This document shows, in pieces, positions 1,992 to 17,715 of a DNA stretch of 45,586 bases (position 1 is the stretch's first letter; every line of letters starts with the position of its first letter). The stretch is from IMG/VR virus record IMGVR_UViG_2713896785_000028, positions 1 through 45,586 of that record; one strand, written 5' to 3'. A model generated the notes under the pieces. The model ran no database searches and was not told the DNA's origin. It saw only the letters and a list, made by a program, of their open reading frames with translations. The position numbers and the translations under genes are program-made. This DNA is from a virus (taxonomy: Duplodnaviria > Heunggongvirae > Uroviricota > Caudoviricetes).

Positions 1992-3095
1992 TCAGGAGCC
2001 GATATATTCTGGTTTCATATCTGTCAGTGTCGTTTTATACGCCTCATATAATTCACCCAGATGTGGCCGGGCAGCATTCAGCGTATTTTCCAGAGCAGTA
2101 AATTTTTGTTCTGCTTCTGGATCACCTGATGAAGGAAGGTCATTTATCATCTTCTCGATACTGGCAATAGCATTGAGACGGTGATGACGCCGAACCACTT
2201 TTCCTTTAAGCTCGGCAAAGAATTCGCCGATCTGGTTTTTCTGATCCTCTATCTCTTGGCGTAATGCAGTGGTTTCCTCAGTCGTGGCCGCACTTTCGAC
2301 ACGCTGCCGGAATTCATCAATCCACGCTTCGTCAATACGCTGTTCGATGGTTTCTGTTCGCTGCTCGCTTACCTCGCTATAATTCTGTACCGGCACAGGA
2401 TTGATGATTTTTTCCTGTGGCTCTTCCAGTTCGTCCGGGGTATACACGCCCAGGATGACGTCAGGACAATAAAGGCGAGCCCAGTATTTCAACGCCAGAT
2501 AGGCGAGCTGTTGTTTCGGGTTTGAGGTCCATAAAGGAGAATTACGCGTAATCACGCTGGAAAGAAACACCGGTTCTCCCCAGGTAATCTCACTTTCACC
2601 GCGAAGAACTGCACCAACTCGAACTGAGAGACCATACTCATCTTCACTGGTCCAACATGGGATCGTTTCTTTTTTCTCATAGATTCCGCCTCCTTTGGCC
2701 GTTTTCTTAACGGTCTCCACTCGGGTGCGAGAGCATTTCTCCCAGTCTCCCTCGTACTTGTAATGGAAGCGGCCTACAATTGCACTTGAGCTAGAGATCA
2801 CAGCGTTAACCAGTTGTGCTTCATAACCCAGAACTCCGTTTACCAGGTGTGTTTTCTGAGCCACAGCGTAGGGGTTCATGCCCCATTGCATGGCTTGCAT
2901 GATGATTGCCATGCAGTCGGCAGGATTTCCGCGAAGGTGATCGGGAACTGTGACGGTGGCCTGTGACATCAACCCGGCTACTGCCTGAAGTTGTGTCAAC
3001 GCCTGAACGTTAAAAATAGTGTTACTGGCAGAAATGGTATTTGGTGTCTGCTCTGTCGTGATGATATTGGTATTTTGCATGGTCAGGTTCTCCAT
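1992..3095 (-). CDS. recT: RecT/Red-beta family single-strand annealing protein
   Basis: 367 aa; translationally coupled to the upstream exonuclease (ATG overlaps its stop); core resembles the annealase motif region (AxxIxQ..GMNP); alternative start at 3080 (MQNTN...) with a GGAGA RBS. Confidence 0.65.
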   Translation of the reverse strand: MENLTMQNTNIITTEQTPNTISASNTIFNVQALTQLQAVAGLMSQATVTVPDHLRGNPADCMAIIMQAMQWGMNPYAVAQKTHLVNGVLGYEAQLVNAVISSSSAIVGRFHYKYEGDWEKCSRTRVETVKKTAKGGGIYEKKETIPCWTSEDEYGLSVRVGAVLRGESEITWGEPVFLSSVITRNSPLWTSNPKQQLAYLALKYWARLYCPDVILGVYTPDELEEPQEKIINPVPVQNYSEVSEQRTETIEQRIDEAWIDEFRQRVESAATTEETTALRQEIEDQKNQIGEFFAELKGKVVRRHHRLNAIASIEKMINDLPSSGDPEAEQKFTALENTLNAARPHLGELYEAYKTTLTDMKPEYIGS

Positions 3096-6000
3096 TAAGC
3101 CAGATGCAGTGCTTCAAGACGACGAAGATCAAAGTCGTTTAATTCGTCGGTATAACTTTCGGTAATCGGTGCTGGCCAGTTGTTTGTCTCTAGGGCTTCG
3201 TTTATCTGGCGTAGCGTCCGGCGATATTCCTGTCGACCAAGTTCCAGGAGTTCCTGCGAGGCTTCCACGACAGCCACCCAGTGATAGCCAGCATCTTTGT
3301 TGACGAAGATCCAGAAAAATTTGTCCAGGTTTGCCACATCGCAATACATTGCGGCGCTGAGGTGATAATCATGCTCAATAATTTCACGGTGCAGGCGATC
3401 TTTAAGTCGTTCCTGCCGCACATAACCGAGGCTGACTGACTTCACGTCAGCGCAAATGCTTTCGTATGGCAGCCGGATTTCGATATCAGGACGGACCCTG
3501 ATTTCCAGCCCGGTTTCTTCATCAAACCCGAAATAGCTGATTTCAGATTTGCGATCCGGGTGGTTGAGTAGCCTTGCTGCATCAGTATTGTTTTGCATTG
3601 CAGCGTGAATATTTTTTGCCTGTTCATACATATCCGGACTGATAAACGTTTTCCCGGCGTTTTCTTCTTGCTGGCGTTTTTGCCAGTCCTCCAGTGTCAC
3701 CAGTTCCGGGCGAATTTTCCGTGCGATTTCGGTTAATTGCTCTTTTGTGCCACTGATGTTGTAAGGCAAAGATTTAGCACGTTCTTTTTTTGCCAGTTCT
3801 GGGTCTACAGTTTCAATTTGATCCAGAAGCTGCTCCCGTGCTCCACTGGTTTTCAACAGAGGAGGGAGGCTTGCGTTGTATTCTTTAATACAGGCTTTCA
3901 TTGCTGATGCTGTATGTTTTTCCCCCTCAGGAATACGCCGAAATTCCATCGGAAGCGAACCGTAAAGGATGCCTGTTTCTTCGGCCCCAGCACTTACAGA
4001 CAGTGGCTGTATAAGAGTGCTGTTGTAGCTTTCGATCCACTCTTTCATCTGCTCTGGTGTCATCAGTGCTGGCAGACTGGCATTGTGTTTTTTAATGATG
4101 GCGATCAGTTCGTTAGAAGTAGTAACCACATATTCAGGAACCGGTACCGGAATGGCATATTCATCAGCGAATTTATCCGTTTCCAGAACATAGCTGTGAA
4201 TGATCCGCCCACGCAGCAGTGCATCACTTTCCTCGTTCGGAATAGTTCCGGCAATGTGCCGCCCGTGGTAATACATCAGGCTGATACGGGCATCCTTCAG
4301 CATCGTGCTGCTTATTCCGTTGGCGGAGTGATAAACCTCGTTCGGGAGGTTTTCATAGCGGCCTGGCTCGAAATATGACGGCCACATGATTTCAGTTGCT
4401 ACAGGAGCTGACGCTTCACCAGTTTCATCACTGCAATCGTGATGCGGATGGTTGCCAGCGTTCTCCTTGTGCGGATGTTCAGCGCCTTCCATTTCCTCCG
4501 GATCATTTTCCTTAGCTTCAACCTGATTCTCTTTATCGAATGTTTCTTGGTATGTTGCGTCGCCCATTACCGCACCACAGTCAGGGCAGTTATCCCCGCC
4601 AGTCTGACCGCAGGCGGCGCAGACTTTTTCCGGTTCCTGTTGCGCATCTGGTTCATTTTGTCGCGCATTTTGGCCGTTTTGTTCCGATTTTCGGTCGTTC
4701 TGTTCCGTTTTTGGCTGATGCTGGTACACAGAATCGCGGGTCTGGATCCCCTTAACCCATTTCGGATCATTTGGGGCGCTAATCCCTTCAACAAATTCTC
4801 CGCGATAGGCAGCCAGTAATTTGTCTGCATCGACAGGATTTTTGGGCGGAATGTTTTTCCGGGCTTCATGGAGTTCTGCCCGCAGTTTCTGATATTTCGC
4901 ATCAACAGAATTTACCTGTGACTGAGCATCCAGCGGCTGCGTGTCCTGATGATGTTCAGTTGCATCCGGTTCCACTGTTTCAGCCGTTGCCTGTTCATCT
5001 GCCATTGCGCAAGATGGTTGCGGTTTTTCTTCATCATCCTGTTTTTCTTCTTCTGTTACACGCTGCGGCATCGGGGCAGAGGAGCGACCGCAGGCAATAT
5101 CCACGATTTCCGGATCAGGGTTGGCATGATCGGTTTCAGTCAGTACTTTGTTCAGATATTCAGTGACGTGCGCGGGGATGACCTCGATCCCAATTGGTGC
5201 TTCTTTCACGGACGCAACCACGATGGCGCGGGAATAATCCAGCCCGCCAGGCATGGTGATGAATTTGTCGCGGAAAACAGAAAAGGGCGGTTTATTTTCA
5301 GCGATAATTTCCTCAATGCGTTTAGCGTGTGCAGGATGAAGGTTATAGATGTCCACATCCATTGAACGGGCCAGTACGCCAGTGGCTACATCGCGCGCCA
5401 GTGACGTCAGATCGTGGACGAAACCTTCGCCGCGATCGGTGAGGTTCCCGCCGCCAGCATTAGCACCGGAAGCCGTGCGAGTGATGCGTGAAACACGATT
5501 CCCTTTTCGCCATTCTTTTGTCAGAAGACCGCGATCAATGTGTTCGGTATCCAGCCAGGCTGAAATGAAATTCTTAAATTCATAGGGCTGATGTTTTTTC
5601 GTGATAGAGAAAACTGCCTTAATTGCATCAGTCAGGCGGAGCAGGGCGGCATTATCCAGAGTTGTCGGTTCTGCCATGCCGCGTATGGCCAACAGCAGAT
5701 TCTGGACATAGCTGTTTTCCTGATCCATCTCAAGAGCAGTGATGTGTTCGCGTTGTTCACGGGTGGCATGATGCAGGTATTTCCGATCCCCGGCCGCATA
5801 CGTAAAAATGTGCAGAAGACGCTGTGTGAACCGCAAAGTGGCTACAGAGACTTCGCAATCCTGGCAATCCCCGTGGGCGTCTGCCTGCGCGTTTTCTTCC
5901 TGGCCCCCCGCCAGTTCTTTGGTTTCCTGAGCATTATCATGGTGGTGAACGTCGTCTGGCGCTGCTCCCGGTTTTAGTTCCCAGGTCATGGAGTCTTTGC

Positions 6001-6241
6001 TGAGTTGATAGCGTTCACTCCAGGTAAAATCGATCTCACCTTCAGGGGGAAGGTCATTAACGACAGGAAAATTCGTGGCAACAGCTTTAAAATAGCTGCT
6101 CAGTTTTTTACCTGACTTAACGATCAGGTAGTCCAGAGTGGCACAGGTCGATTCAAAATCGTCGCTTGCCCACAAGACGACGTCAGGTTCACCGGATGAT
6201 TTTTTCGCTTTCCGTAACAGGAAGAGTGGTTTTGTGCTCAT
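3095..6241 (-). CDS. recE: RecE-like exodeoxyribonuclease VIII
   Basis: 1048-aa ORF; N-terminus [26 protein letters not shown]... as recalled for Rac RecE; large acidic/His-rich linker containing a CxxC..CxxC motif; C-terminal nuclease region; recE-recT order. Confidence 0.8.
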
Positions 6242-8030: not shown

Positions 8031-8495
8031 CTATTTCTTCATGCGTTTCTGAGCTGCCAGCATATTTTCAAACGCTTCTTTGTAGAGTTCATTCTGGCCT
8101 TTAAGCCTTTCGATTAGTTTTGCTTTTTCTGATTCGGGGAGGATATCAAAAAGATCCAGTAAATCAGCTTGTTGCTTGTTAACCATCCGCCACCCTTCGC
8201 CTTCGAAACTTTCGTCATAAGTTCCAGAGGAACGGACGTAATTCATCAGATCAGCTAAATCAGGCCTCAAGTCTTCAGGCTTAACTCTTAGCAATACTGC
8301 GAATTTTAATGCCGCATCAGTGTTAAGTGGAGCCTTTCCGTTGAGATAGTGGCTAACCGTAGATTGCGTCTCAAAGCCCATTAGCTCGGCAGCAAGCTCC
8401 TGAGTCAATTTGAGCTCTCTTTTTTTTGCATCCCAGATTCCGCGTAGACGCTGCGTAGCTTCTGGCGATGCGATTTCTTCGCGTTTTCTTCTCAT
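8031..8495 (-). CDS. racR: Prophage repressor, XRE/CI-like HTH (RacR-like)
   Basis: 154 aa; HTH segment LTQELAAELMGFETQSTVSHYLNGK; divergently arranged with a Cro-like gene across a roughly 100-bp AT-rich intergenic region. Confidence 0.75.
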   Translation of the reverse strand: MRRKREEIASPEATQRLRGIWDAKKRELKLTQELAAELMGFETQSTVSHYLNGKAPLNTDAALKFAVLLRVKPEDLRPDLADLMNYVRSSGTYDESFEGEGWRMVNKQQADLLDLFDILPESEKAKLIERLKGQNELYKEAFENMLAAQKRMKK

Positions 8496-8599
8496 ACCAC
8501 CATCTTATGAACACAGCTCATAATCTCAAACTGATATAACTATTGATCATTTAAATTAGTATAGTTAATATTTTGGCAAACATTACTAAGGTGACCCTT
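8496..8599. promoter_or_regulatory. Divergent promoter/operator region of the immunity switch
   Basis: About 100-bp AT-rich spacer between divergent repressor and Cro-like genes; operator sites not resolved. Confidence 0.4.
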
Positions 8600-8875
8600 A
8601 TGACATTAGATGAATATTTGAAAAAAAATCGTGTACGACAGTCTTGTTTGGCCGCGCTGGCTGGTTGTTCGCAATCAATGATTAGCCTCGTTGCTACTGG
8701 ACGTAGTCAGTTAAGCCCTGAAAAGGTATTGCGTATCGCAGAGGCTACGAATTTCGAGGTTACACCTCATGAACTCCGGCCTGATATCTACCCGAATCCG
8801 ACCGATGGTTTACCTGTTGGATGTAAGGCTAACACACAAAATGCACAGGAGTTGATTCATGAAAATCAGGCATGA
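8600..8875 (+). CDS. ydaS: Cro-like HTH regulator (YdaS-like)
   Basis: 91 aa from the ATG preceded by TAAGGTGA; HTH (RQSCLAALAGCSQSMISLVATGR); divergent from the repressor. Confidence 0.7.
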   Translation: MTLDEYLKKNRVRQSCLAALAGCSQSMISLVATGRSQLSPEKVLRIAEATNFEVTPHELRPDIYPNPTDGLPVGCKANTQNAQELIHENQA

Positions 8876-9281
8876 GCACATCGAATCAGTGCTGTTAGCC
8901 CTGGCCGCTGAAAAAGGGCAGGCATGGGTAGCCAATGCAATTACTGAAGAATATCTGCGCCAGGGGGGCGGCGAATTGCCCCTGGTACCAGGCAAGGACT
9001 GGAATAATCAGCAGAACATCTATCACCGTTGGTTAAAAGGTGAAACGAAAGCGCAAAGGGAAAAAATTCAGACACTGATCCCTGCGGTTCTGGCAATTCT
9101 TCCGCGCGAGCTGCGTCACCGACTCTGCATCTTCGATACCCTGGAACGCCGTGCATTGCTGGCGGCGCAGGAAGCGTTGAGTACGGCAATTGATGCGCAT
9201 GATGATGCAGTCCAGGCCGTTTACCGGAAAGCACATTTCAGCGGTGGTGGGTCGCCCGGTGATTCTGTCGTAGTGCATTGA
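8859..9281 (+). CDS. ydaT: YdaT-like protein (CII-like or toxic regulator)
   Basis: 140 aa, overlaps the ydaS stop by 17 nt; Rac synteny and size. Confidence 0.6.
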   Translation: MKIRHEHIESVLLALAAEKGQAWVANAITEEYLRQGGGELPLVPGKDWNNQQNIYHRWLKGETKAQREKIQTLIPAVLAILPRELRHRLCIFDTLERRALLAAQEALSTAIDAHDDAVQAVYRKAHFSGGGSPGDSVVVH

Positions 9282-9325
9282 TTGAAATTAATCGTGCCGG
9301 ATTGTTTTGTTCGGTATCAGTTAAA

Positions 9326-9346
9326 TGTAACGCTGCGAGCGTTACA
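9326..9346. repeat. Perfect 21-bp palindrome TGTAACGC-N5-GCGTTACA, copy 1, just upstream of ydaU
   Basis: Read directly from the sequence; the right half is the exact reverse complement of the left. Confidence 0.7.
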
Positions 9347-9358
9347 AGGTGAAAACAA

Positions 9359-10147
9359 ATGGCTTCAAACTGGATAAAGCTCGAGGTTATTACGCCGGAT
9401 AAGCCGGAAATATTCAGGCTTGCTGAGATTCTGAATATTGATCCAGATGCCGCATTAGGGAAGGTTATTCGCTTCTGGGCATGGGCGGATCAACAAATGA
9501 TAGACGGTAATGCAGATTGTAACGCTCGCGGCGTTACAAAAAGTGCAATAGATCGCATCACTTTTATGGCTGGTTTTGCTGATGCGTTAATTCAGGTTGG
9601 ATGGCTGGTCGAAAATGACGTTGGGCTTTCTCTACCTAACTTTGAACGCCATAACGGAAAAAGCTCTAAAAAACGGGCGGTTACAAACGAACGAGTTACA
9701 AAAATACGTGAACTGAAACGAAAAGGTAACGCTGCCGGCGTTACACAAACGGATCAAAAAGCGCTACCAGAGGAAGAGGAAGAGGAAGATCTAAATACTG
9801 ATCTCCCCCTAAATCCCCCTCGCCAAAAACGAGCGTCTAAAAAATTCGAGCCGGAGGCTATTGAGCTGCCCGATTGGTTGTCGGAAACACTCTGGCATGA
9901 GTGGGTCCGGTTCAGACAGGCATTGCGAAAACCGATTCGAACGGAGCAGGGCGCTAACGGGGCGATACGGGAACTGGAAAAATTCCGTCAGCAGGGTTTT
10001 ACACCTGAGCAGGTGATTCGACACAGCATCGCCAATGAATACCAGGGCCTGTTCGCGCCGAAAGGTGTTCGGCCTGAGACGTTACTCCGACAGGTTAACA
10101 CCGTCTCGTTACCGGATAGTGCGATCCCGCCAGGCTTCAGGGGGTAA
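9359..10147 (+). CDS. ydaU: Replication initiator, lambda O-like function (YdaU-like)
   Basis: 262 aa; located immediately before a DnaC-like loader; contains iteron-like palindromes within its own coding sequence. Confidence 0.6.
   Translation: MASNWIKLEVITPDKPEIFRLAEILNIDPDAALGKVIRFWAWADQQMIDGNADCNARGVTKSAIDRITFMAGFADALIQVGWLVENDVGLSLPNFERHNGKSSKKRAVTNERVTKIRELKRKGNAAGVTQTDQKALPEEEEEEDLNTDLPLNPPRQKRASKKFEPEAIELPDWLSETLWHEWVRFRQALRKPIRTEQGANGAIRELEKFRQQGFTPEQVIRHSIANEYQGLFAPKGVRPETLLRQVNTVSLPDSAIPPGFRG
9518..9538. repeat. Perfect 21-bp palindrome TGTAACGC-N5-GCGTTACA, copy 2, inside ydaU
   Basis: Read directly from the sequence; same half-sites as copy 1 with a different 5-bp centre. Confidence 0.7.
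9725..9745. repeat. Imperfect copy 3 of the GTAACGC-N5-GCGTTAC palindrome inside ydaU
   Basis: Read directly from the sequence; additional direct GTTACAAA half-sites occur near 9679-9701. Confidence 0.55.
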
Positions 10148-10153
10148 CTGACC

Positions 10154-10888
10154 ATGAAAAATATTGCGGCAGGCGGCATTCTTGAACGTATCCGCAGACT
10201 GGCCCCGCCACATGTAACCGCCCCATTCAGAACGGTTGCTGAGTGGCGCGAGTGGCAACTTGCTGAAGGCCAGAAACGTAGCGAGGAGATCAACCGCCTG
10301 AATCGCCAGTTGCGGGTGGAAAAAATTCTGAATCGCTCAGGCATCCAGCCGTTGCACCGTAAATGCTCGTTTGCGAATTACCAGGTGCAGAACGACGGCC
10401 AGCGATACGCGTTAAGCCAGGCGAAATCCATCGCCGATGAACTGATGACCGGGTGTACAAATTTTGCGTTCAGCGGAAAACCTGGTACCGGGAAGAATCA
10501 CTTAGCGGCAGCTATCGGGAATCGCCTGCTGAAAGACGGTCAGACAGTGATTGTGGTTACCGTGGCTGATGTTATGAGCGCCCTGCACGCCAGCTATGAC
10601 GACGGGCAGTCAGGCGAAAAATTTTTGCGGGAACTGTGCGAAGTGGATCTGCTGGTTCTTGATGAAATTGGCATTCAGCGCGAGACGAAAAACGAGCAGG
10701 TGGTACTGCACCAGATTATTGATCGACGGACAGCGTCGATGCGTAGCGTGGGAATGCTGACAAACCTGAACTATGAGGCCATGAAAACATTGCTCGGCGA
10801 GCGGATTATGGATCGCATGACCATGAACGGCGGGCGCTGGGTGAATTTTAACTGGGAGAGCTGGCGCCCGAATGTTGGCTTGCGATGA
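10154..10888 (+). CDS. ydaV: DnaC/IstB-like helicase loader ATPase (YdaV-like)
   Basis: 244 aa; Walker A GKPGTGKNHLAAAIG and Walker B DLLVLDEIG. Confidence 0.85.
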   Translation: MKNIAAGGILERIRRLAPPHVTAPFRTVAEWREWQLAEGQKRSEEINRLNRQLRVEKILNRSGIQPLHRKCSFANYQVQNDGQRYALSQAKSIADELMTGCTNFAFSGKPGTGKNHLAAAIGNRLLKDGQTVIVVTVADVMSALHASYDDGQSGEKFLRELCEVDLLVLDEIGIQRETKNEQVVLHQIIDRRTASMRSVGMLTNLNYEAMKTLLGERIMDRMTMNGGRWVNFNWESWRPNVGLR

Positions 10889-10987: not shown

Positions 10988-11016
10988 TTACAATATATGA
11001 CTTGTCAAAGTATAAT
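10988..11016 (+). promoter_or_regulatory. Putative sigma70 promoter of the ATPase-protease cassette
   Basis: TTACAA, 17-bp spacer, perfect TATAAT, ending about 10 nt before the ATG at 11027. Confidence 0.4.
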
Positions 11017-11026
11017 GAGAGATTGC

Positions 11027-12130
11027 ATGAAGATTAACCATGAGGATTTAATTGATCTTATAAAGGCATCACTGGATGCGAATTACAGCGAAGTTCGTAG
11101 TGTTAGTAATCGCATTGTTCGCGCAATTAGCGCTCAGGATGCTGACTTAGCAAAGCAAATTAAGTCTATCATCCGTAAAAAAGGGGTACCATTACGTAGC
11201 TCTGGTTATACGGACAGTTTGCCCTTAGATCCGAAATCAAGGATGCCTTTAGTGGAAGAAGTCGAATGGCCTGCAACGCCTTTATTTCTTTCTGATGAAT
11301 CACAGCATATTTTTCATGCTTTTATTCAGAATGTTATCCATCAGAATGAACTTATAGAGAATGGAATTCCAGGTAAATTGAATTTACTTCTTTCTGGTCC
11401 GCCAGGAACAGGTAAGACATTAGTCGCTGGTCATATCGCATCCAAATTAAACAAACCGCTCTATGTTGTTCGGCTTGACTCTGTTATTTCTTCTCTGTTA
11501 GGTGATACAGCGAAGAACCTAAGACAGATTTTTGACTTCGTCCCGACAAAAGATGGTGTGTTATTTCTTGATGAAGTAGATGCGGTTGCTAAGCTTCGTG
11601 ATGACAATCAGGAAGTTGGAGAGTTAAAAAGAGTTGTTAACACATTAATCCAAGGACTGGATTCTCTTGATGATTCTGCTATTGTCATTGCTGCAACTAA
11701 TCATTCGAAGCTATTGGATCCAGCAATTTGGAGACGTTTCCCATATAAAATTAGCTTTGGTTTGCCTGGACAAGATGTCAGATGTGCTATGTGGGAACAT
11801 TTTTTATTTAGAGATGATACGGATTCATTTCTAAGTAAAATGTTATCTATCATATCAACTGGGCTAACAGGTGCTGATATTGAAAATATCAGTTTATCTG
11901 CAAGAAGGCATAGTGTTTTATCTGGCAATGGACTGGATATACCATCTGTTGTTTATGCTATATTGAATAGCGTTGCAGATAGTACAGCAATTCCTTTTGG
12001 TAAGGATATAAATTCGAGTGTTAAGAAAAATTTAGCGAAGGAATTATCTAAGTTTAAATTATCACAGGCAGATATCGGTAGACTTTTAAATGTGAGCAGG
12101 CAAACTATATCAGGTTATTTCAAGGAATAA
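11027..12130 (+). CDS. AAA+ ATPase (IetA-like candidate defence ATPase)
   Basis: 367 aa from the ATG downstream of the predicted promoter (track ORF starts at 10997); Walker A LLLSGPPGTGKT, Walker B VLFLDEVD, sensor-1 IAATNH, Arg-finger region DPAIWRRF; HTH-like C-terminus (LSQADIGRLLNVSRQTISGY); visibly AT-rich. Confidence 0.8.
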   Translation: MKINHEDLIDLIKASLDANYSEVRSVSNRIVRAISAQDADLAKQIKSIIRKKGVPLRSSGYTDSLPLDPKSRMPLVEEVEWPATPLFLSDESQHIFHAFIQNVIHQNELIENGIPGKLNLLLSGPPGTGKTLVAGHIASKLNKPLYVVRLDSVISSLLGDTAKNLRQIFDFVPTKDGVLFLDEVDAVAKLRDDNQEVGELKRVVNTLIQGLDSLDDSAIVIAATNHSKLLDPAIWRRFPYKISFGLPGQDVRCAMWEHFLFRDDTDSFLSKMLSIISTGLTGADIENISLSARRHSVLSGNGLDIPSVVYAILNSVADSTAIPFGKDINSSVKKNLAKELSKFKLSQADIGRLLNVSRQTISGYFKE

Positions 12131-12132
12131 TT

Positions 12133-14400
12133 ATGGTCAGTGAAAATAAAGCTAAAATTTTAAACCCAATAATTACTTTATTGAAACCACCAACGCCAGA
12201 GGCGATTCCTGTTGGAGGGAAAAGTCGTAAAAATATTGTTGGTTCACGGTTGAAACAACAGCGTGAAGTTTTATCCTCAGAGATAGATTCCATATTAAGA
12301 ACAGAAGGTGAAATAGTTAAACATCGTGGTAAGTATCATATAGTAACAAGTATGTTTGAGGACTCATATGCACCATCGTTTATACCAGATTCATTATTCT
12401 GTCCCAGTGTTGAATGTAAGATAGTTGCACCAGCATACAATGGATATTTAATTGAGGTCAATAGCAATGCTTTATTGAAGTTGAAAAATAAAATTAATAA
12501 TGCAAAAGCTATTACTGATCTTGTGGATATTTCAAGGGTTAGAAGTGTTAGTCTTTTTGATTCATCTTGTACATTGCGAAATAGTAGCCTTGATTCGCTC
12601 TGGAATACAGTTAAGGCTTTGAATACATTTCAATTTAATATGTGGCTTATGCCTTTTTTTGATGAGCTTTCTAGAGAGTCTGTAGTTTCAACTTTTTTAA
12701 ATTTTTTAAATGATGGTATCATCGCTTTTGGTTATTCAGATTTTGACATAAAAACTATAAATCAAGATGCTGCTGTTGGCGGGGATAATATAGTCATAGT
12801 TCCACCGTTACTTATTGAAGCGATAAAAAAGTATCGTAAATCAGGTCAAGCATCCGTTACCGTCACTGTAGAGACTAAAGATAGTTTAAACAGGATACTG
12901 AATAGCAGTGCTGTGTATCGTATAGATCCTGTATCACCGCTAAACGTAACAGATACTCCTCCTGGTAATGGGGCTGAACCTGTTCCACCAATATTGGGGG
13001 ATAAGAAAATGCCAACTGTAGTTGTAATTGATGGTGGGTGTAATGCGAAATCATATTCAAATTTAAATATATATAAACTAAATCCGCTAATTCCAGATCA
13101 TGATGCAGATTGTAAACATGGTAATAAAGTTGTATCGTTGTTATGTCACGGTTATGCTTGGAATAATAATTTAAACTTACCTAAATTGCAATGTAGCTAT
13201 ATAAGTGCACAGGCTATTGCGAAAAGGGGAGTGTTGAAACAACCAACTCCGGATCAATTTTTAAATTATTTAAGAATGGTTGCTGACAAAACGTCATCTA
13301 TCGCCAAGGTCTGGAATCTTTCGTTTAATGAAGACGCTCCTCATTATAACTGTAATGAGATAAGTTATCTGGGACATAAAATCAGTTTGTTGGCTCGAGA
13401 ATTTGGTATTCTGCCTGTAATATCTATCGGTAATGTTTCAAAGAACGAAAAACAAAAAAATCTTTGTCCGCCCGCAGATTGTGAGTCAGGAATTACAGTA
13501 AGTGGGAGAACGGCCAATCATGAAGGAATGCCTTCAGATGGCTGTCCTTTAAGTCGGAAAGGCCCTGCTCCTGCAGGAATGAAAAAACCTGAGTTATCAT
13601 GGTTTTCTCGAGTTAGGGTGATAGGTGGAACAGTAGATATCGGAACAAGTTTTAGTGCTCCATTAGTTTCATCTATTGCTGCTCATACCTTTTCGAATAT
13701 TAAAAATGCCACTCCTGATTTGGTTAGGGCATTATTGATTAACAGGAGTGAGTTGCTTTCTCATGATGATGCATTAGGATGGGGGACTCCTTGGGATGGC
13801 GATTTACTGCCATGGTATTGTAAAGATGGCAGTGTCACATTAACGTGGATATCTAAGTTAAAGGCTGGGGCTGCTTATTATTGGAACGATCTTCCATTAC
13901 CTCCAGAGATGTTAGTTAATGGTAAATTAGTTGGTGAGATATCTCTGACAGCTATACTAAAACCTAAGGTTTCTGAGTTCGGAAGTGAGAACTATTTTTC
14001 GACAAGGCTCCAATGTTCGTTACAGGCAATAAAAGAAATTAACGGAACGCTAAAAACAGAAAGCCTTCTTGGGTCAATGAAAGAATCTTCTGTTGATGAG
14101 CGTAAAGCTAGAAATGAACTTTCTAAATGGAGCCCTATTCGCCATCATGCAGAGTCGTTTAAGAGAAAAGATATAACAGGGTGTAAAATTCGGCTTTATG
14201 CTAGGATATATGCTAGAGATTTGTATCAGTATGGGTTAAATAACCAACGGGAGCTTGAAGAGCAAGAGGTTTCCTTTGTTTTAACTTTTAAAAGTGTATC
14301 AGGATCGTCCTCAATATATACATCAATGGTTCAGCAACTTGGTGTTTATGTTGAAAGTGCTGTTATAGATAATCACATTAACATAGATGTTAATAAGTGA
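12133..14400 (+). CDS. Subtilisin-like S8 serine peptidase (IetS-like)
   Basis: 755 aa, 2 nt after the ATPase stop; catalytic-triad motifs in S8 order: Asp (TVVVIDGG), His (HGNKVVS), Ser (GTSFSAPLVSS); about 280-aa N-terminal and 240-aa C-terminal regions of unknown function; AT-rich. Confidence 0.8.
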   Translation: MVSENKAKILNPIITLLKPPTPEAIPVGGKSRKNIVGSRLKQQREVLSSEIDSILRTEGEIVKHRGKYHIVTSMFEDSYAPSFIPDSLFCPSVECKIVAPAYNGYLIEVNSNALLKLKNKINNAKAITDLVDISRVRSVSLFDSSCTLRNSSLDSLWNTVKALNTFQFNMWLMPFFDELSRESVVSTFLNFLNDGIIAFGYSDFDIKTINQDAAVGGDNIVIVPPLLIEAIKKYRKSGQASVTVTVETKDSLNRILNSSAVYRIDPVSPLNVTDTPPGNGAEPVPPILGDKKMPTVVVIDGGCNAKSYSNLNIYKLNPLIPDHDADCKHGNKVVSLLCHGYAWNNNLNLPKLQCSYISAQAIAKRGVLKQPTPDQFLNYLRMVADKTSSIAKVWNLSFNEDAPHYNCNEISYLGHKISLLAREFGILPVISIGNVSKNEKQKNLCPPADCESGITVSGRTANHEGMPSDGCPLSRKGPAPAGMKKPELSWFSRVRVIGGTVDIGTSFSAPLVSSIAAHTFSNIKNATPDLVRALLINRSELLSHDDALGWGTPWDGDLLPWYCKDGSVTLTWISKLKAGAAYYWNDLPLPPEMLVNGKLVGEISLTAILKPKVSEFGSENYFSTRLQCSLQAIKEINGTLKTESLLGSMKESSVDERKARNELSKWSPIRHHAESFKRKDITGCKIRLYARIYARDLYQYGLNNQRELEEQEVSFVLTFKSVSGSSSIYTSMVQQLGVYVESAVIDNHINIDVNK

Positions 14401-17560: not shown

Positions 17561-17636
17561 GGCCCTTTAGCTCAGTGGTGAGAGCGAGCGACTCATAATC
17601 GCCTGGTCGCTGGTTCAAATCCAGCAAGGGCCACCA
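17561..17636 (+). tRNA. tRNA with anticodon CAU (Ile2/lysidine type, ileX/ileZ-like)
   Basis: Cloverleaf read by hand: acceptor GGCCCTT/AAGGGCC, D-arm TAGCTCAGTGGTGAGAGC, anticodon loop CTCATAA, T-loop GGTTCAAATCC, encoded CCA; close to the recalled E. coli ileX sequence. Confidence 0.8.
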
Positions 17637-17638
17637 TT

Positions 17639-17715
17639 CCGCCACTAGCTCATCGGGATAGAGCATCAACCTTCTAAGTTGATTGTGCGAGGTTCGAGTC
17701 CTCGGTGGCGGACCA
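17639..17715 (+). tRNA. tRNA-Arg (anticodon UCU)
   Basis: Cloverleaf read by hand: acceptor CCGCCAC/GTGGCGG, anticodon stem TCAAC/GTTGA, loop CTTCTAA, T-arm CGAGGTTCGAGTCCTCG, discriminator A plus CCA. Confidence 0.8.

Follow-up and report, generated by a model that had tools for sequence, protein, structure and literature searches.

Conserved palindromes at a prophage initiator gene as candidate recognition sites of a replication origin

Three palindromes at the start of an initiator gene

The stretch of prophage DNA considered here, hereafter the window, comprises all 45,586 bp of the viral record IMGVR_UViG_2713896785_000028 and carries three copies of a palindromic element just upstream of and within a gene for a putative replication initiator (9359-10147, plus strand, 262 amino acids). 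It is proposed that these palindromes serve as recognition sites in a phage origin of replication overlapping the 5' half of its own initiator gene, a reading to which we give a probability of about 0.7 on comparative sequence evidence; the region from 9326 to about 9830 would then most likely be the origin of the prophage. Dimers of the initiator N-terminal domain would bind at all three palindromes (the upstream copy at 9326, the proximal one at 9518 and the distal one at 9725), a further subunit would occupy a half-site at 9761, and the bound assembly would destabilise or mark a purine/pyrimidine-asymmetric stretch running from 9769 to about 9830. The DnaT-like C-terminal domain, held on the flexible linker that the purine tract encodes, would recruit DnaB via the neighbouring DnaC-like (YdaV-like) loader, and through the upstream copy, directly adjacent to the ribosome-binding site, the initiator may in addition restrain its own production. 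A preliminary description of this DNA had likewise taken the repeats for initiator-binding sites of a lambda-type origin inside the initiator gene; this is the best fit to the comparative evidence, from which we infer both binding and origin activity.

A pattern search of the window for TGTAACGC-N5-GCGTTACA, allowing up to three mismatches, returned exactly three matches, all near the start of the initiator gene; shuffled controls gave a mean of 0.12 matches per shuffle, and none of 100 shuffles reached three. The three 21-bp copies noted earlier, two perfect and one near-perfect, were thus recovered at 9326, 9518 and 9725, and the scan found no further copy in the window. Palindrome 1 (9326-9346, no strand assigned; TGTAACGCTGCGAGCGTTACA, no mismatch) can be written as TGTAACGCT-GCG-AGCGTTACA, a perfect 9+3+9 inverted repeat. 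It is intergenic: 77 bp separate a YdaT/CII-like gene (8859-9281) from the initiator ATG at 9359, and the palindrome lies within this interval; the Shine-Dalgarno sequence AAGGTG starts where it stops, and among the window copies it is the closest match to the family consensus GTAACGCT-N3-AGCGTTAC. Palindrome 2 (9518-9538, no strand assigned; TGTAACGCTCGCGGCGTTACA, no mismatch) is the proximal in-gene site at gene offset +160 and is translated in frame 0 as CNARGVT. Palindrome 3 (9725-9745, no strand assigned; GGTAACGCTGCCGGCGTTACA), the distal in-gene site at offset +367, has a single mismatch (the outermost base is G, not T) and is translated, also in frame 0, as GNAAGVT. The three sites are spaced by 192 and 207 bp. 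Copies 2 and 3 lie inside the open reading frame (ORF) 9359-10147, and repeats are embedded in the initiator gene likewise in 86 relatives; the hyphenated dyad symmetry that would suit a dimer is present in the family consensus and perfect in palindrome 1.

Two direct GTTACA hexamers (9680-9685 and 9695-9700, plus strand) lie in an A-rich stretch, encode AVTNERVT and were weak candidates for additional half-sites. The direct half-sites reported earlier near 9679-9701 therefore exist, but they are not conserved, being retained by 8 of 93 relatives only; GTTACA/TGTAAC occurs 25 times in the window, and the status of the pair as half-sites, which taken alone is no more than chance would give, is doubtful. 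Directly 5' of palindrome 2, at 9506-9517, GGTAATGCAGAT resembles a degenerate duplicate of the left arm; it corresponds to a four-codon insertion (GNADCNARGVT vs GNAGSVT) present in an enterobacterial subgroup only.

Conservation of the sites and of the adjoining purine tract

Conservation was assessed on 80 loci gathered from one-genome-per-species contigs by an alignment-based scan with a peptide pattern lying outside the motif; an earlier single-protein scan of viral contigs had returned only near-identical E. coli/Shigella prophages, useless for this purpose. They represent Enterobacterales, Pseudomonas, Burkholderiales, Planctomycetota and Verrucomicrobiota (Akkermansia among them), with proteins of 42-72% identity; they are not phylogenetically independent, synonymous positions beyond the motif are near saturation, and a few gene starts derive from tblastn coordinates. 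Nearly all 80 carry GTAACGC-N5-GCGTTAC (with at most one or two mismatches) at about +148 and again between +337 and +393, with the family consensus A-n-G-GTAACGCT-nnn-AGCGTTAC and an element length of 19-21 bp. The proximal site, at about +148 to +160, is kept in 84 of the 93 genes whose sites are of the GTAACGC class (class A), and 74 of these 93 have two in-gene sites. The upstream copy is confined to enterobacteria, among which relatives L088-L095 have one at -31 to -43. Over 86 loci, CGTTAC/GTAACG hexamers are concentrated at +120 to +200 and +330 to +420, where 58-77 fall in each 30-nt bin as against 0.83 expected.

It is the DNA, rather than the peptide, that is held constant at these sites. 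In a codon alignment of 56 non-redundant relatives, the third positions of the arm codons carry 1.1-1.7 bits and the codons themselves are frozen (GGT 86%, AAC 96%, NGC 96%, GTT 93%), whereas equally invariant Gly, Val, Pro and Ala codons outside the arms carry 0.03-0.35 bits at the third position. Four phages (Klebsiella ST11-OXA245phi3.2, Enterobacter BUCT554, E. coli ZX5 and TL-2011b) resemble the window in the N-terminal half only, at about 68% DNA identity, and keep both in-gene palindromes, the distal one in another frame (QKVTPTALQK vs KGNAAGVTQT); overall, 68 distal sites are translated in frame 0 (GNAAGVT) and 23 in frame 2 (KVTPTAL). Departures of the arms from the consensus are one-sided in 108 cases and compensatory in one, indicating selection on sequence and not on pairing. 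These comparisons demonstrate sequence-specific selection on the palindromic element as DNA. The earlier remark that the motif is imprinted on the protein as repeated peptides is correct for CNARGVT and GNAAGVT, with the DNA frozen at synonymous sites and read in two frames; the peptides xNAxxVT would be forced on the protein because the sites sit in coding DNA, and they fall in parts of the protein that can accommodate them, a loop and the linker.

Two palindromes stand only 23-24 bp apart in some loci, at +346 and +369 in L100, L105, L114 and L115 and at +148 and +172 in L117, a distance of about two helical turns that is nearer to a classical iteron array than the dispersed sites of the window. 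Helical phasing of the sites was considered and dropped: spacings of 189-245 bp track coding length and show no 10.5-bp periodicity. In a Verrucomicrobiaceae subgroup (L153, L157, L161, L162 and L165) the layout is different: the sites at the usual places are degenerate, a conserved GTAACGC-N5-AATGTTTC lies about 57 bp upstream of the gene, GTAACGC-like sequences occur at +696, and there is no clean purine run.

Over a set of 151 genes the sites fall into sequence classes: GTAACGC/GCGTTAC in 93 (the window, phage CP2 and Pseudomonas prophages), GTCCGC-N7-GCGGAC in 27 (epsilon15, phiPSA1, RPZH6, Carin1 and BUCT711), GTCACGC/GCGTGAC in 11 (viral contigs) and GTAGACG-N6-CGTCTAC in 4 (Raharianne). 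Genes of the classes other than GTAACGC belong to distant relatives of about 32-41% identity that lack GTAACGC, and the layout is common to all classes: one proximal site, a cluster of distal sites, and a half-site of the type proper to the class that abuts a purine tract. The classes track similarity of the N-terminal domain (identity 0.43-0.67 within a class, 0.31-0.43 between classes). All copies within a gene have switched sequence together, with symmetry and layout kept; such concerted switching suggests a recognising factor of altered specificity, for which the protein encoded by the same DNA is the simplest candidate. Many alignment columns differ between the classes, and no single specificity-determining residue stood out among them.

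Other features of the locus do not accompany the motif so faithfully. The genes upstream vary among carriers and are unrelated to YdaS/YdaT, examples being a Rha-family regulator in Pusillimonas and unannotated small genes in Uetakevirus-type phages; downstream, the partner varies too, from a DnaC-like loader in some carriers to the absence of any annotated loader in others, and the C-terminal domains of the initiators differ. In the sequences compared, the N-terminal domain is the sole constant companion of the motif, and the two are inherited together. A search of plasmid proteins for the initiator gave two records only, both phage-like circles (NC_015459.1, L168; CP088505.1, L169), and thus no independent evidence from a plasmid replicon; the Pusillimonas circle, 41 kb in size, amounts to a whole phage-like genome (terminase, CII, NinB) and has canonical sites together with a purine run of 29 nt.

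The distal palindrome is followed by a half-site and a purine tract. The half-site-like GCGCTACC (9761-9768, plus strand) is one mismatch from the family sequence GCGTTACC, has the orientation of a right arm and abuts the tract; (G/C)CGTTACC(T) stands directly before the tract in most relatives. The polypurine tract AGAGGAAGAGGAAGAGGAAGA (9769-9789, plus strand, 21 nt) encodes EEEEEED of the inter-domain linker and is a candidate unwinding or loading region. Beyond a short AT-rich spacer comes the pyrimidine-rich CTCCCCCTAAATCCCCCTCGCC (9803-9824, plus strand), and similar C/T-rich stretches seem to follow the tract in many relatives. A purine run of at least 14 nt at +300 to +520 occurs in 57 of 86 loci, against 0.01 expected. 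The tract is translated in three frames (EEEEE, EKRRE and REEKRRE), and its Arg codons, 126 in total, are without exception AGA or AGG, codons that make up only 17% of Arg codons elsewhere in the same genes; by these measures the tract is constrained at the nucleotide level. At +400 the family mean GC lies 14 points under the locus average with a purine fraction of 0.69, and in 34 of 86 loci, where about 3 would be expected, the GC minimum of the whole 3.4-kb locus falls at the tract.

The exact 23-nt tract AGAGAAGAGAAGAGAAGAGAAGA, of which the window version is (GAGGAA)3, occurs in at least 120 viral contigs. As this set was selected by the tract itself, only the repeats upstream of the tract count as independent evidence. 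An ORF spans the tract in 77 of the 80 contigs returned as loci (L177-L256); the N-terminal domain is of the window type in 60 of the 77 and of other types in 17, including Lin1244_N, Phage_rep_org_N and a weak DUF1376. The genes with other N-terminal domains have direct or inverted repeats of their own just upstream of the tract, for example CTAGAGG, three copies of TGTCCCGAGAG, AATGCAAATGC and GTGACGTAACGC. Directly downstream of initiator-specific repeats, a near-invariant tract of about 23 nt is thus found in no fewer than four N-domain families, in several bacterial phyla and in all three frames. We tentatively suggest, as a possibility well short of an even chance, that the tract is an unrecognised cross-phylum origin core with a strand-specific function of its own, beyond that of a passive AT-rich unwinding element. 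It may serve as a landing site for a single-stranded-DNA-binding DnaT-like domain or for a helicase, or, because purine-rich RNA forms a stable hybrid with a pyrimidine DNA strand, as a transcription-dependent R-loop or primer-forming element. Were this so, these phage origins would be tied to primosome loading of the DnaT/PriA type.

Alternative readings of the palindromes

Several points weigh against an origin at this place. The sites are few (two or three) and 190-210 bp apart, unlike tight lambda-type arrays; there is no run of some four iterons in close tandem, adjacent sites 23-24 bp apart occur in only some relatives, and the earlier term iteron array has to be given up for two or three dispersed palindromes. 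The AT-rich unwinding element looked for next to the sites is matched by the conserved purine tract and by the GC dip of the family, but the dip is a family-level average only: the window tract is strand-asymmetric with a GC content of about 47%, equal to the window mean, and the lowest-GC 40-mer of 9000-10300 is 9685-9724, just 5' of palindrome 3 and not at the tract. That site class agrees with protein subfamily follows in part from the position of the sites, which lie in the gene and are co-inherited with it. Replication or binding data for this initiator family were not found in the searchable literature, and autoregulatory operators, too, are usually inverted repeats.

This last point leads to the reading that the palindromes are autoregulatory operators only, at which an initiator dimer represses or roadblocks its own transcription or translation, with the true origin elsewhere. 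An inverted repeat is the classical form of an operator, Rep dimers of iteron plasmids bind inverted repeats for autorepression, palindrome 1 stops at the Shine-Dalgarno sequence, and the sites are few and dispersed. However, a crude consensus scan, which is weak evidence, found no sigma-70-like promoter site near 9326-9346; the two sites that all phyla retain are found 150-390 bp into the coding sequence, the upstream copy being enterobacterial only, and simple repression has no need for the distal site to be constantly paired with a half-site, a constrained purine tract and a GC minimum. As the sole function of the palindromes, autoregulation is therefore rather unlikely. It is not exclusive of origin function, and the two may coexist.

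A second reading takes the conserved DNA, above all the purine tract, for a recombination linker at which phages exchange N- and C-domain modules. The mosaic joint between the window protein and YdaU of E. coli K-12 does fall at the tract, the C-terminal domains of relatives differ downstream of it, and the exact tract is spread over contigs with several N-domain families. Exchange at a linker leaves unexplained the palindromes with their concerted switching of sequence as well as the site in the middle of the N-terminal domain, and the retention of the tract across phyla, with AGA/AGG codons even in GC-rich hosts, argues for continuing selection and not for recent exchange. A role in exchange could be a by-product of a position where origin and linker coincide, and we regard it as an improbable main cause of the conservation.

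It is very unlikely that the palindromes act as RNA hairpins controlling stability, processing or translation of the initiator mRNA, even though each copy can form a 7-8-bp stem with a 5-nt loop and palindrome 1 lies just 5' of the ribosome-binding site. A terminator scan gave one terminator-like pattern, on the minus strand at palindrome 3, within the number given by shuffles. When 9715-9835 was folded as single-stranded DNA (z=-1.9), the sole hairpins were that of the palindrome and a small one at GATCT, with no convincing purine/pyrimidine stem. Against hairpins stand the one-sided arm changes (108 to 1), the arm sequence that is invariant across phyla without co-variation, a Rfam search without a match, and the extra single half-site, which is incapable of forming a hairpin.

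Hardly any weight attaches to the palindromes as operators of immunity regulators (a RacR-like repressor or YdaS/Cro-like and YdaT/CII-like proteins), the alternative offered in the preliminary description as operators of a dimeric helix-turn-helix (HTH) regulator. HTH proteins are indeed encoded directly upstream (8031-9281), but the same palindromes occur in loci whose upstream genes are unlike those regulators, and no copy lies in the repressor/cro intergenic region or elsewhere in the window. That the repeats are a protein-level repeat (xNAxxVT) or chance, as the common frame and similar peptides of copies 2 and 3 in the window might suggest, is refuted by the shuffles, the second reading frame (the distal site is out of frame 0 in 23 relatives) and the frozen synonymous positions, palindrome 1 being moreover non-coding.

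The initiator module and its relation to known systems

Family searches place the initiator in a module with an HTH repressor (RacR-like, 8031-8495, minus strand), a YdaS/Cro-like gene (8600-8875) and the YdaT/CII-like gene (8859-9281) before it and a DnaC-like (YdaV-like) helicase loader directly after it (10154-10888, plus strand; Pfam IstB_IS21 and Bac_DnaA; PHROG 50 'DnaC-like helicase loader', E=3e-83), which is the probable partner of the initiator. The initiator itself matches PHROG 2509 'replication initiation protein' (E=1e-87) and consists of an N-terminal domain of about 100 residues, a disordered acidic linker (residues 124-142 are disordered in the AlphaFold 2 model) and a DnaT-like C-terminal domain ending in IPPGFRG. 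Neither Pfam (E<=0.01) nor NCBIfam gave a family for the whole protein. No homology to lambda O was found with the Pfam Phage_rep_O N-terminal domain, and a PHROG 'O-like' match spans residues 100-236 only. In BLASTP the protein is 64% identical to K-12 YdaU over 179 residues, in an alignment that begins at residue 96. The name ydaU-like given to the gene earlier thus suits its C-terminal half, to which the likeness is confined (residues ~143-262), and does not suit the N-terminal ~135 residues, which carry the motif and form a domain other than the DUF1376 of K-12 YdaU. A phmmer search of the Protein Data Bank with residues 171-262 gave a weak likeness to the DnaT C-terminal domain (2ru8, E=9.8e-4; 9zbt, E=3.3e-3), and PF17948, precomputed for several homologues, is not reported for the window initiator. 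The N-terminal domain, in whose model the loop encoded by palindrome 2 has a low pLDDT (the model's confidence score), may be a winged helix; it has no significant fold or sequence match to winged-helix Rep proteins, and the fold assignment is weak. Profile-profile alignment with hhalign against DUF1376/Lin1244_N was negative (probability 0.15%). In gene content, the locus is a Rac-like module with a putatively different origin-recognition half.

Other genes of the window were noted in passing. An anti-phage defence pair, IetA (AAA ATPase, E=5e-100) and IetS (subtilase, E=2e-65), follows the loader directly (10997-14400, plus strand), in the place where Rac-type prophages have ydaW. Upstream of the immunity region is a 1,048-aa ORF (3095-6241, minus strand), at a position where related phage loci have annotated exonuclease VIII/RecE-like genes. 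The prophage also encodes tRNA-Met (CAU) and tRNA-Arg (UCU, which reads AGA) at 17561-17715 (plus strand); AGA fills the purine tract in relatives, and the tract of the window consists of Glu codons, so that no link to the tRNA is shown.

A literature search found no description of the motif, of an epsilon15-like or Rac-like origin of this type, or of the shared purine tract. Searching with the motif string returned primers only, and epsilon15 combined with DnaT and origin returned nothing relevant; oriJ is mentioned only as the active K-12 Rac origin, without sequence detail, and a paper on the replication unit of Stx phages has nothing on repeats or origins. An origin inside the initiator gene is of a known kind; what appears to be new is the present family, together with its classes of site and a dispersed architecture that has a purine core in common. 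The proposal provides a concrete, predicted and testable origin and binding motif for a replication module that is widespread: a 541-bp segment of it is present in 804 of 5,426 complete E. coli genomes (about 15%), and the same module occurs in phages epsilon15, TL-2011b, Xanthomonas CP2 and Pseudomonas PAN70 and in prophages of Akkermansia, Planctomycetes and Pseudomonas, none of which has an annotated origin. It would also be a case of overlapping codes, in which a DNA site dictates peptides (xNAxxVT, and EEEEE or EKRRE) that are placed in a loop and a linker. The classes GTAACGC, GTCACGC, GTCCGC and GTAGACG form a natural series for the co-evolution of initiator and site and could help to predict replication incompatibility or cross-activation between co-resident prophages, and the shared purine tract could serve as a simple sequence tag for phage origins in metagenomes.

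Among known systems, the closest parallel in layout is ori-lambda, in which inverted-repeat sites within the initiator gene O, each bound by two O subunits, precede an unwinding-prone, strand-asymmetric region that also codes for the linker between the DNA-binding N-domain and the partner-binding C-domain (PMC6022878). The window shares with lambda the position of the cis sites inside the initiator gene, the form of each site as a hyphenated inverted repeat fit for a dimer, the purine/pyrimidine-asymmetric, putatively unwinding-prone region after the sites, and the use of origin DNA to encode a flexible linker between the two domains; as in lambda, N-domain and sites are exchanged as one module (PMC6022878). 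Unlike lambda, the window has an N-domain without detectable homology to O (no Pfam match) and two or three dispersed sites about 200 bp apart, one of them upstream of the gene, in place of four contiguous iterons. Its C-domain is DnaT-like and its partner a DnaC-type loader, whereas lambda uses P, and the element on the unwinding side of its family is a (GAGAA)n/(GAGGAA)n tract that is near-identical across many phages.

The replisome organisers (Phage_rep_org_N, e.g. SPP1 G38P) and the DUF1376/Lin1244_N proteins resemble the present system in combining a small two-domain initiator with a helicase loader. SPP1 G38P binds an origin inside its own gene, and, in the viral contigs, genes with Phage_rep_org_N, Lin1244_N or weak DUF1376 N-domains have the identical 23-nt purine tract after repeats of their own. 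The N-domain of the window, without a Pfam match and with the negligible profile similarity given above, sets it apart from them. With the Rep proteins of iteron plasmids (pPS10, F and R6K type) the initiator may share a winged-helix DNA-binding domain; repeated cognate sites adjoin an unwinding region in the plasmids and a candidate one in the window, and the inverted repeats may double as autoregulatory sites. In contrast to the window, the origin iterons of these plasmids are direct repeats, bound by monomers and located outside the rep gene, and the window initiator has no sequence match or significant fold match to Rep.

The nearest relative in gene order is the K-12 Rac prophage, for which an active origin, oriJ, has been reported (PMC3945230). 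Repressor, ydaS, ydaT, initiator and DnaC-like loader follow one another in both, and the C-terminal half of the initiator, 64% identical, ends in IPPGFRG before a YdaV-type loader. Unlike the window, K-12 YdaU has a DUF1376 N-domain (2.7e-26), unrelated by sequence to that of the window, and ydaU has neither the GTAACGC palindromes nor the purine tract. It has instead a feature of its own, four direct repeats of about GATGTTCAAAC with copies starting at +143, +228, +387/+389 and +422 and a span of +143 to +437; in the K-12 MG1655 Rac locus (L007) these repeats occupy 2763-3056 within ydaU at 2620-3477. They are candidates for the oriJ repeats, in a layout comparable to that proposed here for the window.

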